Shown here: piece after piece, positions 24,198 through 46,159 of the stretch
How the letters are laid out: every line of letters begins with the position of its first letter
Position numbering within the stretch: position 1 is the first letter of the stretch
From: a virus
Taxonomy: Duplodnaviria > Caudoviricetes
DNA: 64,000 bases
Direction: 5' to 3' (one strand)
IMG/VR virus record: IMGVR_UViG_2863389319_000001
The notes under the pieces: generated by a model
Database searches by the model: none
Seen by the model: the letters and a program-made list of their open reading frames with translations, nothing else
What the model was told of the DNA's origin: nothing
Position numbers and translations under genes: made by a program

Positions 24198-24824
24198 GTG
24201 TTACCGCGCCATCCCGCACGACGCCGTACTACCCGCCGGAACCGCCGTCGGCCCGGCCTCACCTCACCGCCCGTCATCCTGACCGCCGGGGTGCTCGTCG
24301 CGATCGGCTCGCCCCTGGTCGGGATCCCCATCCTGCTCCTGGCCGTCGCAGGTTTGTGGCTCATGAGGCCCGGCCGTACCCGGTACAGGATCCGCGCACC
24401 GCGCAGGCCAGCACGCATCTCTCGGCCCCGCACCGCCAGCATCAGCGGCTACCAGGCCATGACCCCCGGCCAGTTCGAACACGCGCTCGCGGATCTCTGC
24501 CGACGCGACGGCTGCACCCAGGTGCGCGTCGTCGGCGGAGCCGGGGACCTGGCCGCAGACGTACTCGCCACCACCCCCGATGGTCGCAAACTCCTCATCC
24601 AGGCCAAGCGATTCGGACCCAACACCACCGTCGGCTCCGGCGATGTCCAAAAGGTCAACGGCACCTACCGCGACATCCACCACGCCCAGCTCGCCGCGAT
24701 CGTCACCACCAACCGATTCACCAAAGACGCCGAAGCCCTCGCCCGCCGCGTCGGGATCCGCGCCTACGACCAGCACAGGCTCGCAAGTTGGGCGAGCCGC
24801 ACCGGGCCCGCGCCCTGGCAGTGA
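24198..24824 (+). CDS. membrane-anchored Mrr-family restriction endonuclease
   Basis: MTPGQFEH, GAGDLAADV, LIQAKRF, VTTNRFT..A. Confidence 0.88.
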   Translation: MLPRHPARRRTTRRNRRRPGLTSPPVILTAGVLVAIGSPLVGIPILLLAVAGLWLMRPGRTRYRIRAPRRPARISRPRTASISGYQAMTPGQFEHALADLCRRDGCTQVRVVGGAGDLAADVLATTPDGRKLLIQAKRFGPNTTVGSGDVQKVNGTYRDIHHAQLAAIVTTNRFTKDAEALARRVGIRAYDQHRLASWASRTGPAPWQ

Positions 24825-27570: not shown

Positions 27571-27939
27571 ATGGCGCTCCGCAACGTCGCCAACTGGGAA
27601 CTCGCGGTCGGCTCCCAGTCCTCCCTGCAGTTCGTGTTCACCCAGCCGAGCGGCGCCCTCTACAACATCACCGGGCTGAGTTGGGAGTTCAGGGTCCGCA
27701 CCGACCCCACCGACACGTCCACCGCGCCCCTGATCGAGATCACCCAGACTGGGAACGCCCAGGGCCTGATCACCGCCAATACCTCGGCCTCCACCGTGCT
27801 CCTCACGCTCAACCCGGCCGCCACGCAGACCATGGCGGCCGCCACCTACGCGTGGGCCCTCTGGTCGAACCCCGGCACCACGACCGCCACCCAGTGGGTC
27901 GGCGGCAGCTTCCGCCTGGACCCGGTCGTCCAACCCTGA
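27571..27939 (+). CDS. beta-sandwich virion adaptor (fibre-attachment-like)
   Basis: All-beta pattern; precedes the fibre gene. Confidence 0.55.
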   Translation: MALRNVANWELAVGSQSSLQFVFTQPSGALYNITGLSWEFRVRTDPTDTSTAPLIEITQTGNAQGLITANTSASTVLLTLNPAATQTMAAATYAWALWSNPGTTTATQWVGGSFRLDPVVQP

Positions 27940-27953
27940 CCAGGGGGTGCACC

Positions 27954-30900
27954 GTGACCACCGTTCCCCCAGTCGTCACGGTCACCGAGTCCGGCCCGGC
28001 CGTCACCGTCACACAGACCGGGCCGACGGTGACCGTCGTCACGCAGACGCCAACCGTCACGGTCTCCTCTGCAGGCGCCCAGTCCGTCGTGCAGGCGTTG
28101 CCTCCCGCGACGTACAACCCGGCGACGCAGACCATCGGCGTGACCGTCGGGACCACCGCGGGCACGGTCGCAGCAGGCAATGACAGCCGGATCGTTGGCG
28201 CCATCCAAGGCGGCGCGAGCGCTGGCGGAGACCTATCCGGCACGCTTCCGAGCCCGACAGTTACATCCACCCACCTGACCGCCGCGCTACCCATCGCACA
28301 GGGTGGCACGGGGCAGGCGTCGGCGACCGCGGCGTACAACGCGCTCGGCTCGGAGACCCTCGTCATGACGACGGGCATCCCGGCGGTCGACGCGGGACTC
28401 ATCAACTCGGCGATCTCGGCTGCGTCGGCGGCCGGCGGCGGCCGGGTGCGGCTCGGGAACGGCTCGTGGGTGCTGTCGTCCAGCATCACTCCGCAGTCGA
28501 ACGTGACCCTGTGCGGGCAGCCGGGAACTACCGTGTCGATCAACTTTGTTGGCGACATCGTCTTCGGGAAGACCACCGCCTTCACCAACTTCACCATCGA
28601 GGACCTGACGTTCCTCGGCCCCGTCAACAGCTTCCCGACCGTACCGACCCGCGCCCGCACCACCTCCGGCAACGGGGCACAGACCGCCGTCTACCTGTCC
28701 GGCGACCTCGACTCCACCGGCACCGGCCAGGCGCAGCTGACGAACTTCATCTTCCGTAGGTGCACCGTCCAGAACTGTTCGGCGCTGCCGCTTCGGATCG
28801 GCGGGGTGCGCGGCGAAGTCCTCGTCTACGACTGCACGTTCATCAACAACCAGGACGTCGGGTTCATCTACAACCAGAACGTGCAGTTCGAGGGCAACTT
28901 CGTCTACCAGTCAGCCGACAACGGCGTATCCGTCTCCCGTGGCAACAACAAGTGCGTTGTAGTCGGCAACACCTTCGAGAACTGCTGCTACAACGGCATC
29001 TGGCTGTCCGGCTTCGACGACGGCAGCCACAACCTCGTCGACATCGGGCCGACGAACTTCGCATGCACCGGCAACACGGTGATCAACGTCGGGTTCAACG
29101 GCATCATGCTGGACCAGGCCCCCGCCAACGGCACGGTCACCGGCAACATGGTCACCCAGGGCTACTTCCGGGGGCCTTCGGATCAGGCATCGGACGCCAA
29201 CGGCGCCGGCGTGTACATCGGCGGCTACCCCACCAGCGCCCGCAACTCCCCGACCGCGTACGCCACGAATCTGGTCGTTGCGGGCAACACCCTGTTCCAG
29301 TGTGCCCGCGCCGGCGTGTACATCACCGGTGCCAAGGCGATCACCGTTGAGGCGAACCAAATCCTCAACTGCGGCACCCAGTACCTCGCCGACGGCGCCA
29401 CCGCGATCTCCTCCACCGACAGCACGAACAACGTCGGCATCCTGATCGACAACACCGCGACGAATACCGACATCGCGATCCGCAACAACACCGTCCTCGA
29501 CGAACGCGCAACCCCCTACGGGAACTATGCGCTCGTCCCGCAGACCGCGAACTCGTCGTACGTGTACTGGTTCAACCACATGGCCGGACTGCGGAACCCC
29601 TACAACGTGCTGGACCACGACCCCAACACCCGAGAGATCTCCTCCACGATCCGGTTCGACGCGAACACCAAGTTCGCCGGCGGCGCCACCGCCGGCACAT
29701 CCGGCGGCACCGGCACCATCTCCGGATTCGACATCAACGGCGCCGCAGGATCCGCACGCCGCCACCAGATCCTCACCGGCAGCGTCGTTCGCTGGGCATC
29801 CGGCGGATCCGGCGACGCCGAGACCGGCTCCAACATCGGCACGAACTGGGTCCTCAACGCCTACTCGGACAGCGGAGCGTTCCTGTTCACGCCGATCACC
29901 GTGAACCGGGCCACCGGCGCCGTCACCCTGTCCACCCCGCTGCCGGTCGGATCCGGCGGAACCGGCTCGGCAACGCAGAACTGGGTGTCCCTCGCCGGGG
30001 ATCTCGGGAACACGGTCGGGTCGCCTCAGGTCACGTCCACACACCTGGCCAGCCCGCTGCCCATCAGCCAGGGCGGGACCGGGTCCGCCAGCCAGTCGTT
30101 CGTGAACCTGGCCGGTGACCTCGGCAACACGGTGACGAGTCCGCAGGTCACCTCGACCCACCTGACGAGCGCCCTGCCGATCGCTCAGGGCGGGACGGGC
30201 AGCGCAACGCAGAACTGGGTCGACCTCACGACTACTCAGACGGTCGGCGGGACGAAGGCCTTCAGCAGCGCGCCCAAGCTGCCAGGCGTCCTGGACAGCA
30301 ACGGCGTCACGGTGCTCGGCATCACGGCCACGCCGTCCGCGGTCAACTTCGTCAGCGTACAGAACAACACCACCGGAAACCGGCCCGCCCTGGTCGCTGG
30401 CGGCTCTGACACCAACATCGGCCTGACGGTCAAGACCCAGGGCACGGGCGCGCTCGTCTACCACCCCGGCAGCGACAGCACCGCAGCCGTCCAGCTCAAC
30501 AACGCCGCCCAGACCAGCACCGCGCTGAGTGTCGACACCAGCAACGTGCGTGTCGGTATCGGCAAGAACAGCCCCGGCTCCACGCTCGATGTCGCCGGGA
30601 CCGTCACCGCTACGGGCGTTGCCCTCACCACGAGCCCGACCGCGGGCTACGTGGCCACGTCCGACAGCACGGGCAACGCCACCTGGCAGGCGGTCGGCGT
30701 CAACGGGATCACCCCGGTCCATGCCGGCTTCACCGCGTTCGGCACCGGCGGAATGATCAACACCCTGAACGTGTCCTCAGGGACCCCCGTCACCATGACC
30801 GCCGGCACGATCTACTGGGCTGCCGTGTTCGTACCGTTCACCGTCACGCTCACCGGCGTTATGGTCAGTGTCGGCACCACCGGCGGAACCGACCTGTGGA

Positions 30901-31202
30901 TCGGCTCCCTCTACAACTCGGCCGGCACCGTGATCGCCAACTCCAGCCTGGCGGGCACCGCCGCCGGATCCGCGAACACCAAGATGAAGCTCGCCTTCAC
31001 CTCGACCGCGACCGTCCTCGGCCCGGCCGTCTACTACTGCGCGCTCCAATCCAACGGCAGCACCGCCAAGTTCCTCGGCTTCGGCAACGGCTCCGAGGGA
31101 TTCGTCACCGGCTCCACCACCGGAACGTTCGGCACACTGCCGACCATCACCCCCGGCACCACATACACGGCCGGTGTCGGCCCGTTCGCGAACACCTACT
31201 GA
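27954..31202 (+). CDS. large fibre/spike protein with parallel beta-helix (pectate-lyase-like depolymerase) domain
   Basis: AAGGGRVRL.NG, repeated GNxF/GNxV rungs, LPIAQGGTG fibre repeats. Confidence 0.8.
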   Translation: MTTVPPVVTVTESGPAVTVTQTGPTVTVVTQTPTVTVSSAGAQSVVQALPPATYNPATQTIGVTVGTTAGTVAAGNDSRIVGAIQGGASAGGDLSGTLPSPTVTSTHLTAALPIAQGGTGQASATAAYNALGSETLVMTTGIPAVDAGLINSAISAASAAGGGRVRLGNGSWVLSSSITPQSNVTLCGQPGTTVSINFVGDIVFGKTTAFTNFTIEDLTFLGPVNSFPTVPTRARTTSGNGAQTAVYLSGDLDSTGTGQAQLTNFIFRRCTVQNCSALPLRIGGVRGEVLVYDCTFINNQDVGFIYNQNVQFEGNFVYQSADNGVSVSRGNNKCVVVGNTFENCCYNGIWLSGFDDGSHNLVDIGPTNFACTGNTVINVGFNGIMLDQAPANGTVTGNMVTQGYFRGPSDQASDANGAGVYIGGYPTSARNSPTAYATNLVVAGNTLFQCARAGVYITGAKAITVEANQILNCGTQYLADGATAISSTDSTNNVGILIDNTATNTDIAIRNNTVLDERATPYGNYALVPQTANSSYVYWFNHMAGLRNPYNVLDHDPNTREISSTIRFDANTKFAGGATAGTSGGTGTISGFDINGAAGSARRHQILTGSVVRWASGGSGDAETGSNIGTNWVLNAYSDSGAFLFTPITVNRATGAVTLSTPLPVGSGGTGSATQNWVSLAGDLGNTVGSPQVTSTHLASPLPISQGGTGSASQSFVNLAGDLGNTVTSPQVTSTHLTSALPIAQGGTGSATQNWVDLTTTQTVGGTKAFSSAPKLPGVLDSNGVTVLGITATPSAVNFVSVQNNTTGNRPALVAGGSDTNIGLTVKTQGTGALVYHPGSDSTAAVQLNNAAQTSTALSVDTSNVRVGIGKNSPGSTLDVAGTVTATGVALTTSPTAGYVATSDSTGNATWQAVGVNGITPVHAGFTAFGTGGMINTLNVSSGTPVTMTAGTIYWAAVFVPFTVTLTGVMVSVGTTGGTDLWIGSLYNSAGTVIANSSLAGTAAGSANTKMKLAFTSTATVLGPAVYYCALQSNGSTAKFLGFGNGSEGFVTGSTTGTFGTLPTITPGTTYTAGVGPFANTY
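29930..30230 (+). repeat. about 120-bp (40-aa) tandem fibre repeats
   Basis: LPxxxGGTGSAxQxxVxLAGDLGNTVxSPQVTSTHL repeated about 2.5 times; related copy near 28230. Confidence 0.8.
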
Positions 31203-31215
31203 CGGGAGGCTCCCA

Positions 31216-31743
31216 ATGCCCGTCTCCCGTGCCAACAAGATTGCCATCAATGCCCGTCGCGCCAAGCTCGTCGAATACCGGCGCAAGAAGATCCCCTACA
31301 GCCAGTTCTACGAGGAACTCGGCTACTCCTCGGTCAACGAGGCCACCAAGGACTTCAAGCGCACCCTCGAAGAGTCCATCGCTCGCCAAGACGGCAGCGT
31401 CGAGCTGTACCGCGAAGAACAGCTGCAGGAACTGGAGTACCTCGCCGAAGAGGCGCACAAGATTCTGCGCGAGGTGCACTACGTCGTCGCGACCAGCGGC
31501 AAGGTCGCACTCGACCCGAACACCGATCAGCCTCTGATCGACCACGCGCCGAAACTGCAGGCCATCGACCGGCTGCTACGAATCCTCGACCGTGTAGCCA
31601 AGCTCCGCGGCACCGAGCAGATCCGGGTGGAGGTGCTGACGATCGATGCCATCGACGCTGAGATTCAGCGACTCTCCCGAGACCTCGCCGCTCTTGGAGA
31701 CGAAGCTGGCGAAGCTCCGCCAGTTGAAGCAGCTGACTGCTGA
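31216..31743 (+). CDS. terminase small subunit
   Basis: N-terminal HTH-like region, AIDRLLRILDRVAKLRG; precedes TerL. Confidence 0.8.
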   Translation: MPVSRANKIAINARRAKLVEYRRKKIPYSQFYEELGYSSVNEATKDFKRTLEESIARQDGSVELYREEQLQELEYLAEEAHKILREVHYVVATSGKVALDPNTDQPLIDHAPKLQAIDRLLRILDRVAKLRGTEQIRVEVLTIDAIDAEIQRLSRDLAALGDEAGEAPPVEAADC

Positions 31744-33331
31744 CATCGAGGCGCGCAAGGCTGAGCGGCGAGCCCTCGGCCCCAAGTGGCGGACGCCCGG
31801 GGACCTCGCGAAGCTGATCGACCCGACCACAGTTCAGACGTCGGCACTCGACCTGATCGACCGCGAGCTGATGTGGGCCTACTCGACCCCCGGGGCCCGG
31901 CTCGCAATCTCCGTGCCTCCGCAGGAAGGCAAGTCGAGCCGCGCAACGAAGGTCGGCACCCTATGGGCCCTCGCCAAGAACCCCGAGCTCCGCATCGCGA
32001 TCGTCTCCTACTCGCAGCCGCTCGCCGAGGGCTTCGGCCGGGACATCCGAAACTGGATCGCCACCTACAACGGTGACGAGGGCTCTTTCGACATCGGCCT
32101 GCGGATCGCCCGCGACTACGGATCCGCTAAAAGGTGGCAGCTCGAAGGGCACCGCGGCGGCGTCGTCTGCGTCGGCATCGGTGGCGGCCTCACCGGCAAG
32201 CCCGCCGAGGCGCTGATCATCGACGACCCGTTCTCGGACAAAGAGCAGGCCGACTCGGCCTACTACCGAGAGCGCGTGTGGGGCTGGTGGCAGGCCGTCG
32301 GATCAACCCGCCTGGCCCCCGGCGCGCCAGTAATCTTGATCAACACCAGGTGGCACGAGGACGACCTGACCGGCCGGTTCCTCGCCGCCGAGGACGCCCA
32401 CCGCTGGCGGGTCATCAACATCCCGGCGCTCGCCGACCATGACCCCGCCAAGGGGCAGAGTGACCCGCTCGGGCGCGAGCCCGGCGAGTGGCTGGAGTCA
32501 GCGCGCGGGCGCAGCGCGGAGGACTGGGAGGCGATCCGCATCCAGGCCGGCAGTCGCGTGTTCAACGCCCTCTACCAGGGGCGCCCTTCGCCAGATTCGG
32601 GGAACGTGTGGCAGCGCCACTGGTGGCGCCGCTACTCGGTGCCGCTGTGGTCGCAGCACCCGATGCACCCGGACGCCTACCGGGTCGACGAGGCAGACGA
32701 GATCGTCATGTCCTGGGACATGGCCTTCAAAGACACCCGGAGCAGCGACTACGTCGTCGGGCAGGTGTGGGCGCGGCGCGGCGCCAACGTCTACCTCCTC
32801 GACCAGGTACACAAGCGGCTGAGCTTCACGGACACGGTCGCCGCGTTCAAAGCGCTCGTTGCCCGCTGGCCGCAAGCCACCGCCAAGTATGTGGAAGACA
32901 AGGCCAACGGCACTGCGGTCATCTCGACGCTGCAATCGAAGATCGCCGGGATCGTGCCGATCAACCCGACGGAGAGCAAGTACGCGAGGGCGAACGCCGT
33001 GTCGCCGTTCCTGGAGGCCGGGAACGTCTTCCTGCCTGAGAGCGGAATCGCCCTGTTCGACCCGTCGGAACTCATCGACGAAGCGGCCGGTTTCCCGAAC
33101 GCGTCGCACGACGACCAGGTCGATGCGGCCAGTCAAGCGCTGGCCCAGCTCCTCCTTGACGGCTCCGGCGCCCAGGCGTGGATCGCCTACGCCCGACGCA
33201 GGGCCGAGGCTGCCACCGCCCCCGCTCGACCGGTCGAGCCTCAGCAAGAGTCGACCGCAACGGAAGAGCCCGAAGATCCCGTCGCGGCGCGCCGGCGCGC
33301 CCGCAATGCCGCCCACCGCGCACAGCGATAA
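31646..33331 (+). CDS. terL: terminase large subunit
   Basis: VPPQEGKS, LIIDDP, NTRWHEDDL, SWDMAF, EDKANG, HDDQVDA; true start may be slightly downstream. Confidence 0.95.
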   Translation: MPSTLRFSDSPETSPLLETKLAKLRQLKQLTADIEARKAERRALGPKWRTPGDLAKLIDPTTVQTSALDLIDRELMWAYSTPGARLAISVPPQEGKSSRATKVGTLWALAKNPELRIAIVSYSQPLAEGFGRDIRNWIATYNGDEGSFDIGLRIARDYGSAKRWQLEGHRGGVVCVGIGGGLTGKPAEALIIDDPFSDKEQADSAYYRERVWGWWQAVGSTRLAPGAPVILINTRWHEDDLTGRFLAAEDAHRWRVINIPALADHDPAKGQSDPLGREPGEWLESARGRSAEDWEAIRIQAGSRVFNALYQGRPSPDSGNVWQRHWWRRYSVPLWSQHPMHPDAYRVDEADEIVMSWDMAFKDTRSSDYVVGQVWARRGANVYLLDQVHKRLSFTDTVAAFKALVARWPQATAKYVEDKANGTAVISTLQSKIAGIVPINPTESKYARANAVSPFLEAGNVFLPESGIALFDPSELIDEAAGFPNASHDDQVDAASQALAQLLLDGSGAQAWIAYARRRAEAATAPARPVEPQQESTATEEPEDPVAARRRARNAAHRAQR

Positions 33332-33352: not shown

Positions 33353-36300
33353 ATGGGTGTCCGCTCCCGCCTCGCCAACCTCGCCAAGGTGTTCGGCAAC
33401 TCCACCCCCGCCGAGTTCACGGCCGGCGAGACCGCCGCGCAGATGACCCCGGCGTCACCGTTCTCCCCCGGCACACCCATCCGCCCCTACGACGGATACT
33501 CACGCACCCCCCGCGGCCACGAGTTCGTTCCCGGCTACAACATCTCTGCCCGGCCGCGAGCCCACGAGCGCGTCACCTTCGAGACCCTTCGCAGCCTCAT
33601 CGAGTCCTACGACGTCGCCCAGATGTGCATCTGGCACCGCATCGACTCGATCCGCAGCCTCGACTGGTCGCTCGTCGCAGCGGCGCACTTTGAGGGCGAC
33701 GTGACCGATGCGGTCCGCCTCGGCATGGCGGCGCTGCGCAAGCCGGACCGCCAGACGCCGTTCTCCACCTGGCTGTCCGCCTACCTGTACGACGTTCTCG
33801 CCTACGACGCCGGGGCCCTGTACCGGCTGCGGAATCGGCGCGGCGACGTCGTTGGCCTCATGAACGTCGACGGCACCACCGTCGCGCCGCTGCTCGACTA
33901 CTGGGGCCGCTCCCCCGAGCCCCCAGCCGAGGCGTACGTCCAGTACATCAACGGGTTGCCGTGGGACTGGCTGACCCGGGATGACCTGATCTACGAGCCG
34001 TTCCGGAAGCGCGCGAACTCCCCATACGGTCTGGCGCCGCTCGAAACGATCCTGCTGAATGCCAATACCGACATCCGCTTCCAGATGTACTTTCTGCAGC
34101 GCTTCACCGAGGGCAACGTCCCCGAAGCGTTCGCGTCCGCCCCCGAATCGTGGTCACCCGACCAGATCGAGCAGTGGCAGACCCTCTGGGACTCGTTCAT
34201 GGCCGGCGACCAGGCCGCCAAGCACACTATCAAGTGGATGCCCGGCGGCAGCACGATCGCATGGAGCAACGAGAAGGACTTCACCGACCAGTTCAGCCTC
34301 TTCCTGATGAGGAAAACGGCCGCCGCGTTCCACGTCGTGCCGTCCGACCTCGGGTTCACCGAGAACGTCAACCTGTCCAGCGGCGAATCCCAGGCCGACG
34401 TGCAGCACCGCGTCGGCGACCTCCCGCTGATCCGGCACCTCCAGAACACCATCAGCGCGTTCCTCCAAGACGACCTCGGTCTGCCCCTCGACTTCCTCTT
34501 CGACCTTGGCGAAGAGCAGGCCGACCGGCTGCAGCAGGCCCAGGCCGATCAGATCTACGTCCAGTTGGGGGCAATCAGTTCCAGCGACATCCGCTCGATG
34601 CGGTATGGACTGGAAGAGCCGGAGGGCATACCAGTACCCCGGTTCATCTACGACCCGCGCGGCGGGCCCATCCCGCTGGCGTCCCTGTATGCGGTCGCTG
34701 GCCAGATCGACCCGTCAACGGCCGCGCCAAAGCCGGGAACCGAGCTGCCGCACACCGCCTTCGGAGGCGCCGAGGGCGTCGTTCCGAACCCGCCGATCCT
34801 GACGGCCCCGCTCGCCGAGCAGGAATTCGGGCCCTCCGCACTGCCACCGGCCCCGCCACCGCAGCCCACGCCCCCCGACCCGGGGGCGCCGGTCGCCAAG
34901 GATGGCGGCGCTACGACCGTGGGCATCACCACGGCGACCGGGGTCACTGGCTACGACCTTATCGGCCGCCGTGACGACGAGGACGAGCCGGAGGACCAGG
35001 AGAAGCTCTCAAAGTCCGAGTTGACGGCGTACAGGTCGTTCCGCAAGGCACGTCAACGCGCTGGTAAGTGGAGGGATTTCGAGTTCCGTGTCATCGACCC
35101 GGCCAGGGCGCGCCGACTCAACCAGGCCGGCCGGCTTGCCGTGCGCAAGGCCGAGGGTCAGGTAGCTGTGGCCGGCCTCGCCGTCCAGGCAGCCGACACC
35201 GGCCGAGTACTCATGCTCCAGCGGGCCCTCGACCCCGAGGACCCCGCAGGTGGTACGTGGGAGATGCCGGGCGGACACCTTGAAGGCGACGAAACACCCC
35301 TGCTCGGCGCCTGGCGGGAATGGGCGGAGGAGACCGGCTCTATCCCCCCGCCCGGCCAGCAGACCGGAACCTGGATCAGCCCAGACGGGGCATACCAAGG
35401 CATCGTCTGGACCGTCGACGGTGAGGACAGCGTGCCGCTCGACAGCCGCGATCAGGTATCCAACCCTGACGATCCAGACGGTGACTGCGTTGAGGCGATC
35501 GCCTGGTGGGACCCGGCTCAGTTGGCCGGGAATCCTGCCGTCAGAACCGAGTTGCTGGCCAGCCTGCCCGATGTGCTCACCGCACTCGGCTGCGAAACCG
35601 CAGACACGGTCGACGACATAGCGAAGGCGGCCGCCAGCCCAAAAGGACAGGCCCCTGACGGGGCCGACACGCAGTCCGCGCAGCGGGCATGGCCCGGCTG
35701 GAACCTCGACCTGCAGACCGTCGCACACTGGGTACCGCTTCTCGCAGCCGGGCTCGTTGCGGCGGTGAGCGCAAGGGAGTTGGCGAAGGCATGGCTGGCA
35801 CTCGCACCCGCAGCGTCCGCCAGCACGAAGGGCGAGCGGCTCAACCAACTGACGACGCAAGCCGATGACTTCCTTCAAGGCCGCGGCACTGGCACGGCCC
35901 TGCGAGAGCCGATTGGCGCCACGCTGCGCGGCGTCACCATCGACGGCTATGCCATCGGCGCCGCATCGGCGCACGCCGCCGCAGACGCCCACGAGGCCAG
36001 CGCCCAACCCGGCAGCACCACCGCCGACATGGGAACCTGGACGCCGGGCGCATCCGATGTGGCCCGCGACCTGGTCGACAGCCTCGGCGACGGCAACGGC
36101 CTGGCACACATGCTCGACCAGTCCGGCAGTTCGGTGCAGTCAATCGCAACCGGGCGCCTGAACGGCCTCGCACATGCACTCGCCAACGGTGTGGAAGCCG
36201 GGGACGACCTCGATGCAATCAGCGAGGCCATCACAGATGTCCTGTCCGATCCGTCGCGAGCCGAGATGGCCGTCGCCACCGAACTCGCCAGGACAGCCAA

Positions 36301-36496
36301 CACAGCAGCAGTGCAGGCCTACCGGCAGCGCGACATCGAACGCGTGCGGTGGGCGACTGCCGATGACGACCGGGTCTGCCCGGTCTGCGACGCCAACGAG
36401 GCCGCCGGGCCACGCACACTCGGCGACGACTTCCCGTCCGGCGACCCGATGCCGCCCGCCCACCCACGCGACAGGTGCGCACTACTGCCCACATAG
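33353..36496 (+). CDS. portal protein fused to a Nudix hydrolase and a MuF (SPP1 gp7-like) domain
   Basis: Portal motifs (YGLAPLE, FHVVPSDLG); Nudix box GGHLEGDETPLLGAWREWAEETG; MuF end DDRVCPVC...PPAHPRDRC. Confidence 0.88.
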   Translation: MGVRSRLANLAKVFGNSTPAEFTAGETAAQMTPASPFSPGTPIRPYDGYSRTPRGHEFVPGYNISARPRAHERVTFETLRSLIESYDVAQMCIWHRIDSIRSLDWSLVAAAHFEGDVTDAVRLGMAALRKPDRQTPFSTWLSAYLYDVLAYDAGALYRLRNRRGDVVGLMNVDGTTVAPLLDYWGRSPEPPAEAYVQYINGLPWDWLTRDDLIYEPFRKRANSPYGLAPLETILLNANTDIRFQMYFLQRFTEGNVPEAFASAPESWSPDQIEQWQTLWDSFMAGDQAAKHTIKWMPGGSTIAWSNEKDFTDQFSLFLMRKTAAAFHVVPSDLGFTENVNLSSGESQADVQHRVGDLPLIRHLQNTISAFLQDDLGLPLDFLFDLGEEQADRLQQAQADQIYVQLGAISSSDIRSMRYGLEEPEGIPVPRFIYDPRGGPIPLASLYAVAGQIDPSTAAPKPGTELPHTAFGGAEGVVPNPPILTAPLAEQEFGPSALPPAPPPQPTPPDPGAPVAKDGGATTVGITTATGVTGYDLIGRRDDEDEPEDQEKLSKSELTAYRSFRKARQRAGKWRDFEFRVIDPARARRLNQAGRLAVRKAEGQVAVAGLAVQAADTGRVLMLQRALDPEDPAGGTWEMPGGHLEGDETPLLGAWREWAEETGSIPPPGQQTGTWISPDGAYQGIVWTVDGEDSVPLDSRDQVSNPDDPDGDCVEAIAWWDPAQLAGNPAVRTELLASLPDVLTALGCETADTVDDIAKAAASPKGQAPDGADTQSAQRAWPGWNLDLQTVAHWVPLLAAGLVAAVSARELAKAWLALAPAASASTKGERLNQLTTQADDFLQGRGTGTALREPIGATLRGVTIDGYAIGAASAHAAADAHEASAQPGSTTADMGTWTPGASDVARDLVDSLGDGNGLAHMLDQSGSSVQSIATGRLNGLAHALANGVEAGDDLDAISEAITDVLSDPSRAEMAVATELARTANTAAVQAYRQRDIERVRWATADDDRVCPVCDANEAAGPRTLGDDFPSGDPMPPAHPRDRCALLPT

Positions 36497-36505
36497 GAGG
36501 TGCCC

Positions 36506-36889
36506 ATGACTGACGAGCCCCAACGCTACGTTTTGGGCATCGCCTATCAGGCGGGCCCCGACCCACGCATTCAGCGCGGAGCCGACGGCGGCCGCGACTT
36601 CTTCAGCCCTGACGAGCTGGAGAAGGCCGCCTGGGGCTTCCTACAGAAAGGTGCGCAGGTCGGCCTGTTCCACGGCCCCGAGGCATCAGTCGGAGCCGCA
36701 ACAGTCGTCGAGTCGTACATCTGGAGAGCCGACGACTGGGACCTCGGCAACGGAACCGTCGTACGCAAGGGCGACTGGCTGATCGGCGCGATCCTCGATG
36801 AACACGCCTGGCAGCTCTACAAGTCCGGGCGCGTCACCGGCTGGTCGCCGCAAGGCTCAGCGCGCCGCATCACACGACGGAGTAGCTGA
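36506..36889 (+). CDS. XkdF-like putative prohead protease
   Basis: RYVLGIAY, ELEKAAWGF, VVESY, KGDWL, TGWS.QG. Confidence 0.75.
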   Translation: MTDEPQRYVLGIAYQAGPDPRIQRGADGGRDFFSPDELEKAAWGFLQKGAQVGLFHGPEASVGAATVVESYIWRADDWDLGNGTVVRKGDWLIGAILDEHAWQLYKSGRVTGWSPQGSARRITRRSS

Positions 36890-38718
36890 TGACCACACCC
36901 GAGGACGACTTCACCGAACTTCGCGACGCCGACATCCCGCGCGTGGACCTCGTGGACAAGGCCGCGAACGGCACCCGGTTCCTGATCGCGAAGAAGGAGA
37001 GCGGCGGCCAGGCCGGCCTTCTGAACGCCGACTTCGTCCGCGACCTGATCGGCAAGTCCGCGCCCGCCCCCGCACCGGAGGAGACGGTGACGATGACCGG
37101 CAGCCCATCGGCAATCGCCAAGCTCATCCACGAAGCCGCACTGCGTAAGGCCGAAGTGAGCACCGCCGACCAGAACGACATGCCGGACAGCGACTTCGCC
37201 TACATCGAGCCCGGAGGCAAGAAGGACGACGAGGGCAAGACCATGCCGCGGTCGCTCCGCCACTTCCCCATCAACGACGCAGCGCACGTCCGCAATGCTC
37301 TCTCCCGCGCACCCCAGTCCCCGTTCGGCGACAAGGCGATGCCGAAGATCCGGGCCGCAGCGAAGAAACTCGGAATCGAGGTATCCAAGATGATCGGTGG
37401 CGACCTGGACGAGGGCGTCGACGGCATGGACCCCACAGTGGTCCTAGCCGCACCCGAAGACGACGACGCCCCAGGTGACCCCAACGAGCCCGGCTCACCG
37501 GCATGGGAGGCCATCGATGCGGCCACCGCCCAGAAATGGACGTCGATCGCGGTGCGTCTCCAGAACGCGCTCGGCGTCATGGCGGAACGCGAACTTCTCG
37601 AGGCGGCATCCGCCGACCCGGACGACGCGGAATCCGCCTGGGACCTGCAGGACGCCCAGTGCGCCCTCGACTACGTGATCTGCGTCCTCGCCGGGTTCGC
37701 CGTCGGCGAGCAGGGAGAGGCCGAACTCGCCACCGAGGCCATGGACTCCATCGGAAAGGCCCTTGGCCACTTCGACGCCTCACCCCTGGACACGATCGAG
37801 GCGCTGAGCACGGTCACCAAGGCGGGCCGAGTCCTCAGCGCGGCCAACGAGGCCTCGATCCGGACCGCCGCCGAGCACCTGCAGAAGGTCCTCGCCAGCT
37901 TGCCCGCCGCACCCGTCGAGAAGGAGAGCGGCCGGACGGTCGCCAAGACCGCCAACGAGGAGTCCGACATGCCCGAGCCGACCACCGCTGCGGAGACCGC
38001 TCAGGCTTCCGGTCAGGAGCCTGCCATGGGCAGCCAGGAGCCCATGGCCAAGGCCGACGGCGACAAGCCCAAGATGGTCGCTGTCTATGACAAGAACGGC
38101 AACCTCGTCGGAGTCGTCGACCCGACCGAGATCACGGTGATCGAGGGTGCAGGATCCGACGCCAATGGCTCCGGCGATGACGCCCCGGACGCTGACGCCC
38201 CGGACGACACGGCCGGCGACGACACCCAGCCCGCCGACCTCACGCCGCAGCCTGCGGCCGATGCTGGCACCCCCGCTGACGCCGTCCCCGACGACGACAG
38301 CGACGACAACGCAGTCTCCAAGACCATCAACGACACGACCTCGGAAGACGTGCTCAAGATCATCGCCACCGACTCTGCTGCAGCAGCCATCGCCGACTAC
38401 AGCGCCACACAGGAGCAGGTCATCGCCAAGCAGGCGGCCGACCTCGCTCAGCTGGCGGACACCGTCGAGAAGCTGACCGGGCTGGTCAAGGCGCTGGAAG
38501 AGCAGCCCGCCGCACCACGTGTGTTCACCAACGGAGCCGTCCCGCCTGCGCACCAACTGCGCGGCCAGGACCGAGGCGCCCCGGCCCTCGACAACAACAG
38601 GGCTCAGGAACTCAAGAAGGGCCTCTACGGCGGCGTCGATGCGGCAGAGCAGAACCGCATCCACAACACCATGCAGGCCGAGGCCATCGCCGCGCTCCAG
38701 GCGATCCACCGGGCGTAA
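36889..38718 (+). CDS. scaffold/capsid maturation protein
   Basis: VDLVDKAAN start, RHFPINDAAHVRNALSR domain, acidic coiled coils; directly before the capsid gene. Confidence 0.7.
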   Translation: MTTPEDDFTELRDADIPRVDLVDKAANGTRFLIAKKESGGQAGLLNADFVRDLIGKSAPAPAPEETVTMTGSPSAIAKLIHEAALRKAEVSTADQNDMPDSDFAYIEPGGKKDDEGKTMPRSLRHFPINDAAHVRNALSRAPQSPFGDKAMPKIRAAAKKLGIEVSKMIGGDLDEGVDGMDPTVVLAAPEDDDAPGDPNEPGSPAWEAIDAATAQKWTSIAVRLQNALGVMAERELLEAASADPDDAESAWDLQDAQCALDYVICVLAGFAVGEQGEAELATEAMDSIGKALGHFDASPLDTIEALSTVTKAGRVLSAANEASIRTAAEHLQKVLASLPAAPVEKESGRTVAKTANEESDMPEPTTAAETAQASGQEPAMGSQEPMAKADGDKPKMVAVYDKNGNLVGVVDPTEITVIEGAGSDANGSGDDAPDADAPDDTAGDDTQPADLTPQPAADAGTPADAVPDDDSDDNAVSKTINDTTSEDVLKIIATDSAAAAIADYSATQEQVIAKQAADLAQLADTVEKLTGLVKALEEQPAAPRVFTNGAVPPAHQLRGQDRGAPALDNNRAQELKKGLYGGVDAAEQNRIHNTMQAEAIAALQAIHRA

Positions 38719-38793
38719 CGCCCCAGCTGCCACAGACCAAGCCCCCGAACTGCCCAACGGCGCGGGGGCTTTCGCATGCCCAGGAGGCACCCC

Positions 38794-40296
38794 TTGAGCA
38801 ACATGCAGGACATCTCCGAGGAGACCCTCGGCGCACTCGCGGCCATCACCAAGGCCCAGACCACCGGCATCACCACCTCGACCGGCATCACCTCGTTCGA
38901 CCTGTCGCCGCTCGTCACCCTCGTCCCCGTCGTGACCCCGTTCAGGGACATCGTGACGCGCACGAAGAGCCCCGACGGCAACAAGTACGCGGTGTGGCGC
39001 AGCATCCTCAACGCGACGAACGCCCAGCCCGATCCGAGCATCCCGTTCGACTACGCCGCGAACGAGGTCATCTTCAATGAGCAGGACTTCCAAGCGGCCT
39101 ACAAGGGCACGGGCCTGGCCGGCATGGTCACGCAGGACGCCTACGACCTGGCGATGGGCTACGACGACCCGTACGCGACGGCGACGTTCAACACCCTCAA
39201 TCAAGTGTTGATCGGCGACGACCGCAAGCTTCTCGGTGCGCAGAGCTTCGCGCTCGCCCAGCCTGCCGCGCCGTCACTCACCCAGCACGCCACTGGCGGC
39301 ACCATCGGCGCCGTCCAGGTGTACGTCGGCGTCGCCGCGCGCACCGGCTCCGGCTACTACTACGGCTCCGGCAACTCCCAGGGCAACAGCAACTCGACGA
39401 CGTTCGGCAGCGGCAGCACCAACTCGGTGTCCGCCACAGTCACCGCCGTGCGCGGCGCGGTCTGCTACGACTGGTTCCAGAGCGCGAACGGCTCGACCTG
39501 GTACTACTACACGACCACCACCGTCAACGCCGTCACCATGACCCGGGTCATCTCCGCCAACAACACGCTGCCGACCGGCACCGCCGTCCCGGACCTGACC
39601 ACCGTGTGGAAGGGAACCGCCAGCAGCGTCCCGACCTACCTGTCGTCCGGCGACAACGGATCCGCGAACACGGCCGACTACGACGGCCTCCTCGCGTCGC
39701 TGTCCGGCGACTACAACGGCTCCGGGCAGTGGGTGCAACCTGGCACCGGCACCGCGAACCCGTCGATCGCCAACTCGCTGGACGGCGCGGCGCTCACCCT
39801 GTCCGGTGGTTCCGTCACAGAGATCGAGAACCTGCTGTTCCTGCCCCTGTGGCAGCAGGTCAAGTGCAGCCCCACCGCGCTCATGATGAACGCCGCGCAG
39901 GCGCAGGAGATCGCGAACCTGGTTCTCGGCGGTTCGTCCGCGACGACATTCCTCAACACCGACGCGAGCGGCCGTATCTCGGTGACCGCAGGTGGCCGGG
40001 TCGGGGAGCTCGTCAATGCCCCGGCCGGCGGTGTGACCGTCCCGATCGAGGTCCACGTCTCCCTCCCGCCCGGCACAATCATCGCGCGAACGGACCGAGT
40101 TCCGTTCCCGCAGGCCAATATCGGCAGCGTCCTCGAATACCGAGCCCTGCGCGACATGGTCCAGTTCGACTACGGCGTCAACAGGATCGCGAACACGGCC
40201 GGCGGCGGCCCGAGGCGCGAATTCGAGATCAAGTCCATGGGCGCCTTCCTGAACAAAGCTCCTGTCGCGATGGCTTCGCTCACGAACGTGAGCTGA
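38794..40296 (+). CDS. major capsid protein with inserted beta-rich domain
   Basis: AGGAGG RBS plus TTG start; LVPVVTPFRD, YDGLL, PTALMMN; position after scaffold. Confidence 0.8.
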   Translation: MSNMQDISEETLGALAAITKAQTTGITTSTGITSFDLSPLVTLVPVVTPFRDIVTRTKSPDGNKYAVWRSILNATNAQPDPSIPFDYAANEVIFNEQDFQAAYKGTGLAGMVTQDAYDLAMGYDDPYATATFNTLNQVLIGDDRKLLGAQSFALAQPAAPSLTQHATGGTIGAVQVYVGVAARTGSGYYYGSGNSQGNSNSTTFGSGSTNSVSATVTAVRGAVCYDWFQSANGSTWYYYTTTTVNAVTMTRVISANNTLPTGTAVPDLTTVWKGTASSVPTYLSSGDNGSANTADYDGLLASLSGDYNGSGQWVQPGTGTANPSIANSLDGAALTLSGGSVTEIENLLFLPLWQQVKCSPTALMMNAAQAQEIANLVLGGSSATTFLNTDASGRISVTAGGRVGELVNAPAGGVTVPIEVHVSLPPGTIIARTDRVPFPQANIGSVLEYRALRDMVQFDYGVNRIANTAGGGPRREFEIKSMGAFLNKAPVAMASLTNVS

Positions 40297-40328: not shown

Positions 40329-41036
40329 GTGAAGCGATGCACCAAGTGCGAAGTCGAGAAGCCCTTAGAGGGCTTCCACAAGTCAGCCAGGTCGCCCGAC
40401 GGGCGGCAGTATTGGTGCAAGCCGTGCGCCATTGCTGCCGCCCGCGAGCGAGCACTCCGCAATCCTGATGCCAAGCGCGAAGCCGACCGGAAGTACGCCG
40501 CTTCGGAGAAGAATAAGGCCAACCGCAAGGCGCGCCGCGAGGGCCCGCAGCGAGAAGTAATCCTTGAGCAGAAGCGCCAGTCCTGGGAGCGTCACAAAGA
40601 GGAGAACGCCCGGCGCGCACGTGAGGCTCGGGCCGCTGAACCGGAGCGGTTCAAGGAGTACTACCAGCGAAAGTACGCCGCCAACAAGGAAAAGATCCTT
40701 GCGCAAAATCGCAAGTGGGCGGTGGCGAACCGCGAGAGAGTCCGTGCCTACCGTCGCCAGCGGTCCTACGGGATAACCCCGGAGGAGTTTGACCGGAAGA
40801 TCCTGGATCAGAACGGCCGCTGTGAGATCTGCGGCATAGAGATGCATCTGATGGACGAACGCATCAAGGGCGGGACCACCCGAACCGGGATCTGCGTCGA
40901 CCACTGCCACAAGACCGGAGTCGTCCGAGGACTGATCTGCAGCGGATGCAACAAGGGCCTTGGCTACTTCAAGGATGACCCGGCTCGACTCAAGGCGGCA
41001 GCCGGGTATATCGCCAAGTACCAGCAGAGCTCGTAG
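40329..41036 (+). CDS. endonuclease VII-type homing endonuclease
   Basis: KRCTKC, YGIT.EEF...QNGRCEIC, VDHCHKTG.VRGLICSGCNKGLG. Confidence 0.92.
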   Translation: MKRCTKCEVEKPLEGFHKSARSPDGRQYWCKPCAIAAARERALRNPDAKREADRKYAASEKNKANRKARREGPQREVILEQKRQSWERHKEENARRAREARAAEPERFKEYYQRKYAANKEKILAQNRKWAVANRERVRAYRRQRSYGITPEEFDRKILDQNGRCEICGIEMHLMDERIKGGTTRTGICVDHCHKTGVVRGLICSGCNKGLGYFKDDPARLKAAAGYIAKYQQSS

Positions 41037-41953: not shown

Positions 41954-42012
41954 ACCCTTCGCGTTCGCCAGCGACGGCGTCACAATCCGACTTCGCGTGA
42001 ACGGTGGTGACC

Positions 42013-42939
42013 ATGCCTGGCACGCCTTACGTCACGCCGGCCATGCTGACGTCGGCCCCGGCCGGCATCTCGTGGGCCGTTGTTCCGACGCTCACCGCGA
42101 GCGCCCAGACCCAGACGGCGCAACTCGCGCAGGTGTGCTGGCAGGCGACGTCGGCCGTGGACCGGTACTGCCTGCAGCCGCTGCGCGCCACGGTCAACAC
42201 CGAGACGGGCAGCGGTCCCGGGCTGCCGCGCATCGCCTCGGACCGGGCCACACGCAAGGGCACCATCGTGACGCGCCGCTGGCCCGTCACCTCGGTGGCC
42301 GCGATCCAGACGTCACCTGCTAGCGCATATCCGGAGCAGTGGACGCTGGTGCCGTCGGGGCAGTGGAGGGTGCGCACCCCGCCGATCTTGTCGGCGGCTC
42401 CTACTCCCTCAACGGGCCCGACGGGTGGAAATGTCATCGATGTGGCGCCTGGCTACATCACGTGGGGCCGCGGCAAGGGCGGCTGGGACGTGATGACGTC
42501 CTATCTGTCCGGGTGGCCGCACGCCGGCCTGTCAGCGGCAGTCTCGGCAGGGGCCGAATCCCTGACCGTGGACGACGTAACCGGCTGGACCGGCTCGGTC
42601 GGGTTCCTGTACGACGGGATTTCGACGGAGCTGGTCGAGGTGACCGCGGCCGCGGCGACAGTCCCGGTGCAACTGCCGGGTGTCGCGGGCACGGTGCAGG
42701 CGGGCCCGGGGACGCTGACTTTGGCCGGGCCGCTCGGTTTCCAGCACAGTGCCGGCGCGGTGTTGTCGGCGCTTCCCCCGGATGTGATCCGGGCGGCTGC
42801 GCTGCAGGCCTCGGTGATGGCGCTGGAGACGATCGACGCGATCGCCACGCAGTCGCTGTCGGGGCGGATGGCGGGCGGCACCGGGGTGCTCGCGGAGGAG
42901 GTCGAGATGATCCTGGACAACTACCGCCGGGTCGCCTAA
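42013..42939 (+). CDS. head-tail adaptor
   Basis: PYVTP, ATSAVDRYC, LPPDVIRAA, ILDNYRR. Confidence 0.7.
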   Translation: MPGTPYVTPAMLTSAPAGISWAVVPTLTASAQTQTAQLAQVCWQATSAVDRYCLQPLRATVNTETGSGPGLPRIASDRATRKGTIVTRRWPVTSVAAIQTSPASAYPEQWTLVPSGQWRVRTPPILSAAPTPSTGPTGGNVIDVAPGYITWGRGKGGWDVMTSYLSGWPHAGLSAAVSAGAESLTVDDVTGWTGSVGFLYDGISTELVEVTAAAATVPVQLPGVAGTVQAGPGTLTLAGPLGFQHSAGAVLSALPPDVIRAAALQASVMALETIDAIATQSLSGRMAGGTGVLAEEVEMILDNYRRVA

Positions 42940-43349
42940 TGGCCAGGGCCCGCAGTGCACGAGGCGGCTCCGGTGGCGCCACGGGCCCTACCGGTGTACT
43001 GAGGTTCTGGAACCGCACGATCACGATCATGCGGGGTACGTCGGCGAACCCGTACGGGGACCAATCCGACGTGGGCATCCCCATGTACAGCGGCGTGCAG
43101 GCGGCGATCGCCGAAACCGAGCAGACCGTGTTCGACGCGGCAACCCAGCGGCAGCAAATCATCCGGGCGGTCACCTGCACGGTCCCGGCCTGGGTGGACG
43201 TCCTGACGACGGACACCCTGCAGGACGAGCTCACCGGCTACTTCTACATGATCGAGTCGATCGAGTCGGAGCCCGGCATCGGCTACTACCCGCCACCCAA
43301 AACCCTGACCCTGCGCATGCGTTCCGGCGTCAGCATCGGCTCGGACTAG
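42939..43349 (+). CDS. head closure/stopper protein
   Basis: TITIMRG..NPYGD pattern; position. Confidence 0.65.
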   Translation: MARARSARGGSGGATGPTGVLRFWNRTITIMRGTSANPYGDQSDVGIPMYSGVQAAIAETEQTVFDAATQRQQIIRAVTCTVPAWVDVLTTDTLQDELTGYFYMIESIESEPGIGYYPPPKTLTLRMRSGVSIGSD

Positions 43350-43357
43350 GAGGCCCC

Positions 43358-43738
43358 ATGGCCAACCGCGTCGACATCGACGACTCCTGGCAGGCCCAGG
43401 TCGGCGCCGCCGTCGAGGCGCTCTTCCAGGCCCGACTCGGCCCCGACATTGTCCGCGACGCCAAACGGTACTGCCCCGAACGCACCGGAGCACTACAGGA
43501 GTCGATCGAACACCACCTCGAAGACGGCGACCTGATCGTCTCCGCGACCGGCGGCGACGACGGCCGCACCTACGCCGCCTACGTCGAGCTGGGCACCCGG
43601 CCGCACGAGATCCGGCCCGTGCGCAAGCAGGCGCTGTTCTGGGCCGGGGCCGCGCATCCGGTCGGGAAGGTCGACCATCCGGGGACGAGGCCAATGCCTT
43701 TTTTGCGCCCGGCCCTCTTCCAGGAACGCAGCGAGTAG
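43358..43738 (+). CDS. HK97 gp10-like neck protein
   Basis: AKRYCPERTGALQESI, YAAYVELGT, PFLRPAL. Confidence 0.85.
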   Translation: MANRVDIDDSWQAQVGAAVEALFQARLGPDIVRDAKRYCPERTGALQESIEHHLEDGDLIVSATGGDDGRTYAAYVELGTRPHEIRPVRKQALFWAGAAHPVGKVDHPGTRPMPFLRPALFQERSE

Positions 43739-45486: not shown

Positions 45487-46080
45487 ATGATCAAAACGCC
45501 AACTGTGCAACAGGAAGGCGCAATTCAATTCGAGTACCTGCCCGACGGTCGCGGCCTTCTCAGGCCGCATGTGCTCATAGTCTGTGAAGGCTGCAGCAAA
45601 GAGGCCCTTGTACGCGCCGACGGATCAAGGCGGTTCTGCTCAAAGAGTTGCTCGACCTTAATCCAGCACGCCGAAGGGCGCAGCAGGCAGCTCAGCGGAA
45701 TCGAGCACTACGCCTGGAAGGGCGCTAACGCCCAGTATCAGGCCCTGCATATGCGTGTCGCTCGTGCACGGGGCAGGGCCGACCACTGCGAATGGCGCGC
45801 AACTGCGGGCTGCAAGAGCCGCAAGCTTGAGTGGTCCCACGTTCACGAGACCGACCCGAGCGTGCCTCAGAACTACAGATCACTCTGCAAGACGTGCCAT
45901 CAAAGGTATGACAGCCAGACCGGCGCCGACCACGCGAACGCCAAGCTCACCGCACTGCAAGTCGAACTGATCCGTCAACGCTACAAAGCCGGCGGCACCA
46001 GCCAGCAAGCACTTGCGGATGAATATGGCGTCAGCCAGAGTGCCATCAGCCGGATTACCCGGCGAAGGCACTACCGCTGA
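45487..46080 (+). CDS. HNH-like homing endonuclease with Zn finger and C-terminal HTH
   Basis: CEGC...FCSKSC, LCKTCHQRYD, NAKLT...QQALADEYGVSQSAISRI; lower GC. Confidence 0.75.
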   Translation: MIKTPTVQQEGAIQFEYLPDGRGLLRPHVLIVCEGCSKEALVRADGSRRFCSKSCSTLIQHAEGRSRQLSGIEHYAWKGANAQYQALHMRVARARGRADHCEWRATAGCKSRKLEWSHVHETDPSVPQNYRSLCKTCHQRYDSQTGADHANAKLTALQVELIRQRYKAGGTSQQALADEYGVSQSAISRITRRRHYR

Positions 46081-46159
46081 CCAACACCACCCCCGAATTG
46101 AGCCCGGCATCCCACCTGATGCCGGGCTTTCTGCATCCCTCACCCCCAAGCGAGACACC

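Follow-up and report, generated by a model that had tools for sequence, protein, structure and literature searches.

What does a phage gain by building a Nudix hydrolase into its portal protein, and does the gene for such a protein specify one product or two? Both questions are raised by a gene at positions 33353-36496 on the plus strand of a 64,000-nt stretch of tailed-phage DNA (IMG/VR record IMGVR_UViG_2863389319_000001; Duplodnaviria, Caudoviricetes), the whole of which is called the window below. An earlier note on this DNA had described the gene as a triple fusion of portal, Nudix and MuF domains and had proposed that the enzyme is built into the head vertex; the observation is borne out, and the interpretation finds partial support. 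The portal-Nudix-MuF fusion itself is an ordinary further member of a published class, and the new point of the present analysis is a conserved slippage signal before the MuF domain. The explanation that we favour, with a confidence only a little better than even, is that a portal gene has been extended by Nudix and MuF domains, that it would yield two translation products assembling into a mixed portal ring, and that the Nudix domain may be released and delivered.

Architecture and spread of the fusion

The gene is made up of the following parts:

33353-36496 (+): portal-Nudix-MuF gene, 1047 codons plus stop (0-frame product)
33548-34762 (+): portal domain, residues ~66-470 (PF04860, phrog_2662, Foldseek)
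34763-34987 (+): Pro-rich disordered linker 1, residues ~471-545 (AlphaFold2, alignment)
34988-35152 (+): helical hairpin (two helices) before the Nudix domain, residues 546-600, conserved
35159-35602 (+): Nudix hydrolase domain, residues ~603-750 (PF00293; fold match to YmfB/NudJ and DR1025)
35603-35671 (+): disordered linker 2 between Nudix and MuF, residues 751-773 (AlphaFold2)
35672-36493 (+): MuF/SPP1 gp7-like domain, residues 774-1047 (PF04233, TIGR01641)
36377-36478 (+): C-terminal Cys/His motif (C1009, C1012, H1037, C1042)

The reading frame starts with ATG and continues for 1047 amino acids (aa) with zero internal stops. The uninterrupted open reading frame (ORF) reported in the earlier note does exist as an open frame, but it probably does not correspond to one product, a conserved -1 cassette having been missed. 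Judged by the curated Pfam cut-offs, which all three domains exceed, Phage_portal (PF04860) covers residues 89-416 (58.4 bits against a cut-off of 39.1), NUDIX (PF00293) covers residues 606-724 (51.1 bits against 21.1; 1.7e-13) and Phage_Mu_F (PF04233) covers residues 939-1044 (37.1 bits against 29.6). The portal region also matches phrog_2662 of PHROGs at 6.6e-63, and the 1047-aa protein scores 41.1 with the NCBIfam model TIGR01641 (SPP1 gp7), whose cut-off is 39.65. An AlphaFold2 model of the 1047-aa protein, for which an alignment of 94 homologues was the input, recovered three folds for these three domains. The modelled portal domain (residues ~66-470) resembles the portals of phage 812, a gene transfer agent (GTA) and HK97 (Foldseek, E 3e-10 to 2e-7), whereas the Nudix domain is predicted as an alpha/beta/alpha Nudix fold with a predicted local distance difference test score (pLDDT) of ~85-95 and matches 3dku, 1sz3 and 3grn, that is, E. 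coli YmfB/NudJ-type structures among others. The MuF domain is predicted to be helical with very high confidence (pLDDT ~95). The Pro-rich linker that the note had placed after the portal domain comes out as disordered (~470-545), with pLDDT below 50 at residues 501-545, and the helical hairpin that follows it is specific to the portal-borne form of the Nudix domain. All four residues of the C-terminal MuF Cys/His motif, which had likewise been recognised, are invariant in the 94 aligned homologues.

One outcome named beforehand as undoing the interpretation was a fusion created by misassembly or misannotation, hiding a stop or a frameshift between separate genes. Apart from being a general possibility, it is favoured by the fact that some relatives are truly split at the Nudix/MuF junction. 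Against this, a Logan contig, probably from the source sample, spans positions 35200-36100 without a difference or gap (two public DNA runs with this sequence represent one sample, possibly the source, and no RNA run was among those listed), 62 related loci read through this junction in frame, and two isolated phages with finished genomes hold the same ORF. The fusion is not an artefact, the contrary being hardly credible in our estimate.

A word-indexed search followed by clustering at 90% identity gave at least 430 homologue clusters, most of them full-length with portal and NUDIX domains and with or without MuF; nearly all of the best 120 are full-length with portal and NUDIX, MuF being detected or not. 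The named sources are Streptomyces, Kitasatospora and Streptacidiphilus, and about 100 loci were fetched for comparison (23 from species-representative genomes and 80 from IMG/VR). Among isolated phages, only the Arthrobacter phages Sonali and Mufasa8 share the architecture (gp3 in both, 41-44% identity). Variants on the theme include inteins within the gene, a C-terminal ADP-ribosyltransferase (ART) domain and forms of ~760-820 aa. Ten homologues of ~1400 aa (P0027, P0033, P0039, P0060, P0067, P0068, P0073, P0089, P0110 and P0117) contain inteins or homing endonucleases, whose domains (LAGLIDADG_3, Intein_splicing, Hint_2) sit in the portal, before the Nudix domain or in the MuF Cys motif. 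In P0091 (1468 aa) an extra ART exoenzyme domain (PF03496, 1e-16) lies C-terminal to the MuF region, which places a Nudix and an ART on one portal chain. P0048 is a 756-aa portal-Nudix form; its IMG/VR locus (L044) has no heptamer of the kind described below and no MuF start nearby.

A probable slip site between Nudix and MuF

Three elements follow one another closely in linker 2:

35638-35644 (+): slippery heptamer C_CCA_AAA, in phase, on the codons of P763 (CCA) and K764 (AAA), both rare
35650-35665 (+): GC hairpin with a 6-bp stem and a 4-nt loop, beginning 5 nt past the heptamer
35656-35658 (+): TGA in the -1 frame, four codons past the slip, predicting a 768-aa portal-Nudix product without MuF

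Four Kitasatospora relatives that look 'split' first pointed to the signal: their 0 frame ends ~20 codons into linker 2, whereas the conserved start of MuF (from a W-P-G-W segment onward) lies in the -1 frame, and C_CCA_AAA is the point at which the two join. In the gene studied here this heptamer is the sole in-phase heptamer of the A/T type, and the hairpin behind it has a minimum free energy (MFE) of -13.8 kcal/mol (z -3.0), with 1 of 200 shuffled sequences as good.

In a census of the 94 loci with a recognisable Nudix box, an in-phase heptamer was present between Nudix and MuF in 81, as CCCAAAA in 72 and as GGGAAAA in 9, the latter variant changing Pro-Lys to Gly-Lys while keeping the slipperiness. 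Since AAA, CCA and GGA are all rare codons in these genes (8.7% of Lys, 4.1% of Pro and 6.1% of Gly codons, respectively), the pattern reflects neither chance nor conservation of the amino acids. The heptamer is kept across lineages down to ~41% protein identity, and the flanking linker is free to vary. MuF follows in frame in 62 of the 81 loci and in the -1 frame in 14, the remaining 5 being without the marker motif. For the in-frame class, the -1 frame closes at a median of 4 codons past the slip, as against a background median of 45, and GGT GAC is often the codon pair that creates this stop, although GGT is uncommon (10 of the 89 Gly codons in the present gene). For the -1 class, the 0 frame stops 8-25 codons past the heptamer; moreover, 9 of 13 loci have the -1 frame blocked two codons ahead of the heptamer, and 8 of those 9 offer no start codon in that frame until 52-132 codons downstream, the ninth locus being cut by the contig end. 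With the -1 frame closed upstream and its start codons so far downstream, the conserved start of MuF can be reached by a slip alone. The -1 class comprises L016 10289, L017 10271, L018 10253 and L027 10274, together with the IMG/VR loci L051, L077, L079, L084, L088, L096, L101, L102, L110 and L019; public annotation of these relatives would show a truncated portal-Nudix protein and an N-terminally clipped MuF protein.

The sequence downstream of the heptamer is also more structured than expected. A fully paired stem with 5 or more GC pairs, located 3-10 nt downstream, accompanies 47% of the sites compared with 5.9% of control positions, and the stem sequences differ. Relative to controls from the same genes (mean MFE -9.85 kcal/mol), the downstream mean is -15.6 kcal/mol in the in-frame class and -12.8 kcal/mol in the -1 class (p 5e-21 for in-frame versus control). 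The stronger structure of the in-frame class could mean, speculatively, that both layouts aim at a minority of MuF-bearing chains.

Taken together, the elements would work as follows. Translation in the 0 frame would give the 1047-aa portal-Nudix-MuF protein, whereas a -1 slip on C_CCA_AAA ahead of the GC hairpin would be followed by the stop four codons on, giving a 768-aa portal-Nudix protein in the manner of dnaX tau/gamma. Both products are expected to join the same ring, in which MuF would be carried by some subunits only. Frameshifting in the portal gene and its efficiency are predictions, and several further points weigh against the proposal. The heptamer is missing in 4 of the 22 genome loci and in ~13 of the 94 loci overall, and is thus not obligatory; the statistics above ignore shared ancestry among the loci; and RNAalifold, applied to a 19-sequence subset, returned a weak consensus of -5.4 kcal/mol with 6 pairs, 4 of them compensatory and several broken, a weakness explained by the stem register differing between subclades.

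These points bear on a second reading, namely that only the full-length 1047-aa protein is made and that the heptamer and hairpin are left over from an out-of-frame ancestor or have another use, such as a translational pause for domain folding. The frame is open throughout, recoding is here a prediction from the sequence, and GC-rich hairpins are common in DNA of 70% GC, and the relatives without the heptamer fit this reading too. It accounts poorly, however, for a rare CCA-AAA or GGA-AAA pair held at one position across lineages while the linker around it varies, for a close -1 stop that is itself conserved through an uncommon codon, for structure enriched over controls within the same genes, and for the 14 relatives in which MuF would be out of reach without a slip. 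We regard the full-length-only reading as improbable, and a recoded gene with two products as the better account.

The window offers an internal control of a kind. A second C_CCA_AAA, at 46546-46552, lies in phase two codons before the stop of ORF 46013-46558, and the -1 frame is open from there to the tape measure gene (46890-51266), the next ORF being 46555-46872. This position is typical of the classic G/GT-type frameshift of tail assembly chaperones. PHROGs named neither ORF 46013-46558 nor ORF 46555-46872, and in the Sonali record no chaperone frameshift is annotated; with no name from either source, the control stands by its position. A third plus-strand CCCAAAA is found at 43296-43302, between ORFs 42004-42939 and 43358-43738.

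Our joint reading, held as somewhat more probable than its negation, is that a large actinophage lineage has recoded portal genes, in which the cassette would set the ratio of MuF-bearing to MuF-less chains and its polarity would have flipped repeatedly (the slip truncating the product of in-frame genes and extending that of out-of-frame genes), and in which linker 1 would mimic the capsid N-terminus, as a protease site or as an anchor. If true, the portal ring, usually taken as twelve identical subunits, would consist of two translational isoforms, with frameshifting setting the MuF copy number. A literature search on frameshifting or recoding in portal genes found no report; this would be the earliest case of a recoded portal gene to be described, and would add a new means of dosing cargo inside the head. 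The slip site also explains why some relatives look 'split', and corrects the annotation of dozens of phage and prophage genomes.

The Nudix domain and its possible release from the portal

The catalytic motif of the enzyme occupies the following positions:

35273-35341 (+): Nudix box, residues G641-S663, with catalytic E647, R655, E656, E659 and E660

The canonical Nudix box lies where the earlier note had placed it and reads G-x5-E-x7-R-E-W-x-E-E-x-G, the sole departure being a Ser at the final 'U' position. All five catalytic residues are invariant in 120 portal-borne homologues, among which those failing the strict box pattern deviate solely at the last Gly, and R655, E656, E659 and E660 are also invariant in 49 non-portal carriers. 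The domain apparently is catalytically active. Alternatively, it could be catalytically dead and serve the portal crown as a structural spacer or plug, given that it sits between two structural domains and that its activity is a prediction. We consider this very unlikely in view of the invariance just described, which extends to carriers unrelated in their other domains, and of the fact that the Nudix domain is a mobile module found together with enzymes.

The most likely substrate would be a nucleoside diphosphate linked to another moiety (ADP-ribose, an NAD-derived compound, ApnA or similar), hydrolysed in the newly infected cell; the earlier note had thought of nucleotide alarmones, defence signals, NAD caps or ADP-ribose. 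The sequence does not allow the substrate to be read off, and this weighs against so specific a proposal. By BLASTP, the domain resembles T4 NudE only weakly (29% over 80 aa, E 8e-4), and its match to the NadM-like Nudix protein of the prophage itself has 34% identity over 87 aa (E 8e-9); sequence comparison did not confirm membership of the T4 NudE clade. Substrate-specific Nudix signatures (a Pro or Tyr 16-18 residues past the box) gave no clear call, and the invariant G679 and Y681 downstream of the box are only a lead. The upstream motif of NuCoA-type coenzyme A (CoA) pyrophosphatases was ruled out by eye. The NadM-like protein is a free-standing Nudix protein of 139 aa encoded at 16734-17153 (+), of the NadM/ADP-ribose pyrophosphatase type (NadM-like NCBIfam matches down to 4e-18; phrog_1198 at 1.7e-29), so that the phage carries both major phage Nudix types.

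The range of proteins that carry this Nudix subfamily is informative about where it may act. Searched alone (residues 576-761, clustering at 50% identity), the domain yielded 1266 clusters, 368 of them at E<=1e-30, in proteins of 148-4688 aa and at any position along the chain; about half of the best 150 carriers have no BLAST similarity to the present portal or MuF. In 49 carriers with no such similarity to the portal, the domains found together with the Nudix in a Pfam census were 2H phosphoesterase (8), DUF5661 (5), ART exoenzyme (4), S78 prohead protease (4), other portal families (4), Zeta toxin (2) and Acb1 (2), as well as RadC, ART, GNAT and ParB_N. The subfamily (at least 50% identity) also occurs fused with other portals, MuF alone and S78 prohead proteases, and within polyvalent proteins, where it stands beside 2H/Acb1-like phosphoesterases and ARTs. 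In Streptomyces phage Gilgamesh, for example, gp52 (L007 5440-7365, annotated 'hydrolase') is an S78 prohead protease plus Nudix encoded directly before the capsid gene, and in Pseudanabaena phage Pam4, gp13 (L008 3870-6911, 'capsid maturation protease') is MuF plus Nudix with a C-terminal half without assignment. A gene for a protein of ~4600 aa, gp48, lies near gp52 in Gilgamesh. Such a carrier range would fit a head-packaged enzyme. Phage Nudix domains fused to portal, MuF or head protease have been described, and their packaging and injection predicted (Iyer et al. 2022, PMC9503650, section 3.5.2), and the architectures of polyvalent and MuF-effector proteins have been described (Iyer et al. 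2017, PMC5512222). The central idea of the earlier note was thus already in print, and the triple fusion adds a member to this published class of head-protein-fused enzymes, which phages are proposed to deliver along with their DNA. The literature search on anti-defence roles of virion Nudix enzymes gave nothing specific, and the phrase 'portal and MuF-like fusion' was not found in the literature searched.

The genes around the fusion bear on its location:

31646-33331 (+): large terminase (Terminase_6C, Terminase_6N), immediately upstream
36500-36889 (+): XkdF-type prohead protease, 129 aa (PF14550 at 7e-15; phrog_3017)
36889-38718 (+): scaffold-like protein, 609 aa, with several hydrophobic-x-Lys-Ala/Thr/Asp sites; position conserved in relatives
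38776-40296 (+): major capsid protein, 506 aa (phrog_13692; 40% identical to the capsid proteins annotated in Sonali and Mufasa8)

The fusion gene has the large terminase on one side and the protease, scaffold and capsid genes on the other, and the adjacent XkdF-like protease to which the note had pointed is borne out by the PF14550 match. Three real domains, the gene position and a fusion conserved with intact catalytic residues support the proposed placement of the Nudix domain in the capsid interior. The C-terminus of the portal, presumed to face that interior, would have been extended by the active-looking Nudix domain and the MuF head domain, and every portal subunit would then take a Nudix domain into the head, nominally 12 per virion.

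How the enzyme might leave the head is suggested by a conserved motif in linker 1:

34892-34966 (+): linker-1 conserved motif, residues 514-538 (alignment)

The motif consists of hydrophobic-x-Lys-Asp/Glu, a variable spacer and a 13-residue core of the form G-I-T..T-G..Y-D-L, in which V514, K516, G524, T526, T529, G530, Y534, D535 and L536 are at least 90% conserved. It is found in 99 of 120 close homologues, and its core recurs in the capsid protein at residues 31-43; in a six-frame translation of the whole 9.57-Mb genome it occurs only in the portal gene and the capsid protein. The capsid copy, at 38845-38904 (residues 24-43), reads Ile-x-Lys-Ala followed by a G-I-T..T-G..D-L core. This N-terminal capsid motif is strongly conserved, Sonali and Mufasa8 included, and K26 within it is a candidate maturation cleavage site. 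The sharing is compatible with common prohead-protease sites, and equally compatible with a mimic of the capsid N-arm that would bind scaffold or shell. By eye, no co-variation between the two motifs was seen in ~18 loci, where both keep the consensus. The shared motif was not placeable on the capsid protein, for which the AlphaFold2 model was poor (mean pLDDT 39, 17-sequence alignment) and the PDB held no sequence relative. Non-portal Nudix carriers lack the linker-1 motif, which is hence not a general cargo tag.

Linker 2 also has a conserved hydrophobic-Ala-Lys-Ala motif (K758), and the scaffold-like proteins contain repeated hydrophobic-x-Lys-Ala/Thr/Asp sites; the near-invariance of K764, in contrast, is due to the slip site and not to a protease site. 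The conserved Lys motifs of the linkers are suggestive of release by protease, and the adjacent prohead protease may first cut the Nudix domain from the portal at the conserved Lys in linker 1. Prohead proteases process head cargo in other phages (T4 internal proteins, P2 gpO substrates, lambda gpB), and in P2 and lambda the head protease also trims the portal. Literature searches returned nothing specific on a Lys specificity of prohead proteases or on the specificity of XkdF-type proteases.

Release and ejection are the steps on which a third reading differs. The Nudix domain might stay tethered to the portal and never be delivered, with its action confined to the producing cell late in infection or to the vertex where DNA is packaged. 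There it might, for instance, remove a nucleotide-derived defence signal or an ADP-ribose adduct near portal and terminase, and fusion would provide only co-localisation and stoichiometry. In both predicted isoforms the Nudix domain is covalently on the portal, and portal rings remain in the virion; a portal-tethered enzyme leaves the capsid only through a cut that is itself a prediction, which counts against delivery, as does the absence of the candidate cleavage motif from linker 1 of Sonali and Mufasa8. It has further been proposed that head-gene-linked enzymes might counter immunity directed against the packaging apparatus (Iyer et al. 2022, PMC9503650). On the other side, the occurrence of the subfamily on MuF alone, on prohead proteases and on giant polyvalent proteins with effector-type domains fits cargo better, and the Lys motif that linker 1 has in common with the capsid N-terminus is compatible with processing. 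We hold permanent tethering to be a possible but doubtful alternative, slightly more probable than a full-length-only product, and retain release and delivery in the favoured explanation. Should the Nudix domain be delivered and be active on a defence-related nucleotide, it would represent a compact and abundant counter-defence module in Streptomyces-type phages.

Gene neighbourhood and comparison with known systems

The host phage is a temperate siphophage of the Streptomycetaceae type. The element lies in a 9.57-Mb genome of 71.5% GC, the window itself having 67.7% GC. Neither an integrase nor a tRNA was found in the window (1-64000); the closest tyrosine recombinase lies ~30 kb before the window begins (G000:C1:1440296-1440907), and for this reason, and with several related IMG/VR contigs of ~90 kb, the prophage may be ~90 kb long. 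Other genes on the plus strand include an endonuclease VII/HNH-type gene at 40329-41036 (PF02945, 4.8e-18) between the capsid and head-tail connector genes, and a 1173-aa beta-helix tailspike-like protein at 27681-31202 (phrog_29706, 3.8e-85), upstream of the terminase and apart from the tail module. The early region encodes a 753-aa FtsK/SpoIIIE-like protein (21381-23642, weak match) and a protein with an Mrr-type restriction endonuclease domain (24198-24824).

The closest isolated counterparts are Sonali gp3 (QAY16116.1, 'portal and MuF-like fusion protein'; 995 aa) and Mufasa8 gp3 (YP_009885083.1, 'MutT/NUDIX hydrolase' in RefSeq; 1000 aa). Both have the domain order portal-Nudix-MuF, and both genomes have the gene order terminase, fusion, XkdF-like protease, scaffold-like protein and capsid protein. 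The in-phase CCCAAAA between Nudix and MuF is kept, with a hairpin of different stem sequence 8 nt downstream, and the -1 frame stops after 9 further codons, which gives an 11-residue -1 peptide when Pro-Lys of the slip site is counted. They differ from the present element in being lytic or isolated Arthrobacter phages rather than a prophage and in a linker 1 without the motif resembling the capsid N-terminus; neither record annotates a frameshift. These two SEA-PHAGES isolates are culturable and carry the predicted slip site.

With the architectures surveyed by Iyer et al. (2022, PMC9503650), the present gene shares a Nudix domain carried on the portal, as others are on MuF or capsid protease among the head genes, and our census reproduces that pattern. 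The two surveys (PMC9503650, PMC5512222) deal with architectures only and report no recoding signal at the junction. They also find effectors usually C-terminal to MuF, whereas here the enzyme stands between portal and MuF.

T4 NudE (NP_049737.1), whose record gives activity on FAD, ApnA, ADP-ribose and NADH, is likewise a phage Nudix enzyme encoded beside virion-associated genes (internal proteins, lysozyme) and has the same Nudix box, but it is a free protein of 151 aa and its identity to the portal-borne domain is as low as stated above. SPP1 gp6/gp7 and Mu gp29/gp30 provide the precedent for a partnership of portal and MuF, which a covalent link combined with a frameshift would hard-wire; in SPP1 and Mu, unlike here, portal and MuF are separate genes and no Nudix is involved. 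SPP1 gp7, like MuF-family proteins in general, is a minor head protein that binds the portal, with a few copies in each virion. A ring in which a minority of subunits bear MuF would fit, by analogy, this low copy number of gp7.

For the slip site itself, the precedents are the -1 frameshift of dnaX tau/gamma, reportedly described by Tsuchihashi and Kornberg in 1990, and the G/GT frameshift of tail assembly chaperones in long-tailed phages, said to have been established by Levin, Hendrix and Casjens in 1993 and by Xu, Hendrix and Duda in 2004. Like both, the portal genes have an X_XXY_YYZ heptamer that is followed, after a short spacer, by a stem-loop. As in dnaX, a slip in the in-frame genes would be followed by a near-immediate stop and a C-terminally truncated product; as in G/GT, a slip in the 14 out-of-frame relatives would extend the protein, and the site at the chaperone position of the prophage is also CCCAAAA. 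What sets the present system apart from either is that the signal lies in a portal gene, and that both polarities are found within one protein family.

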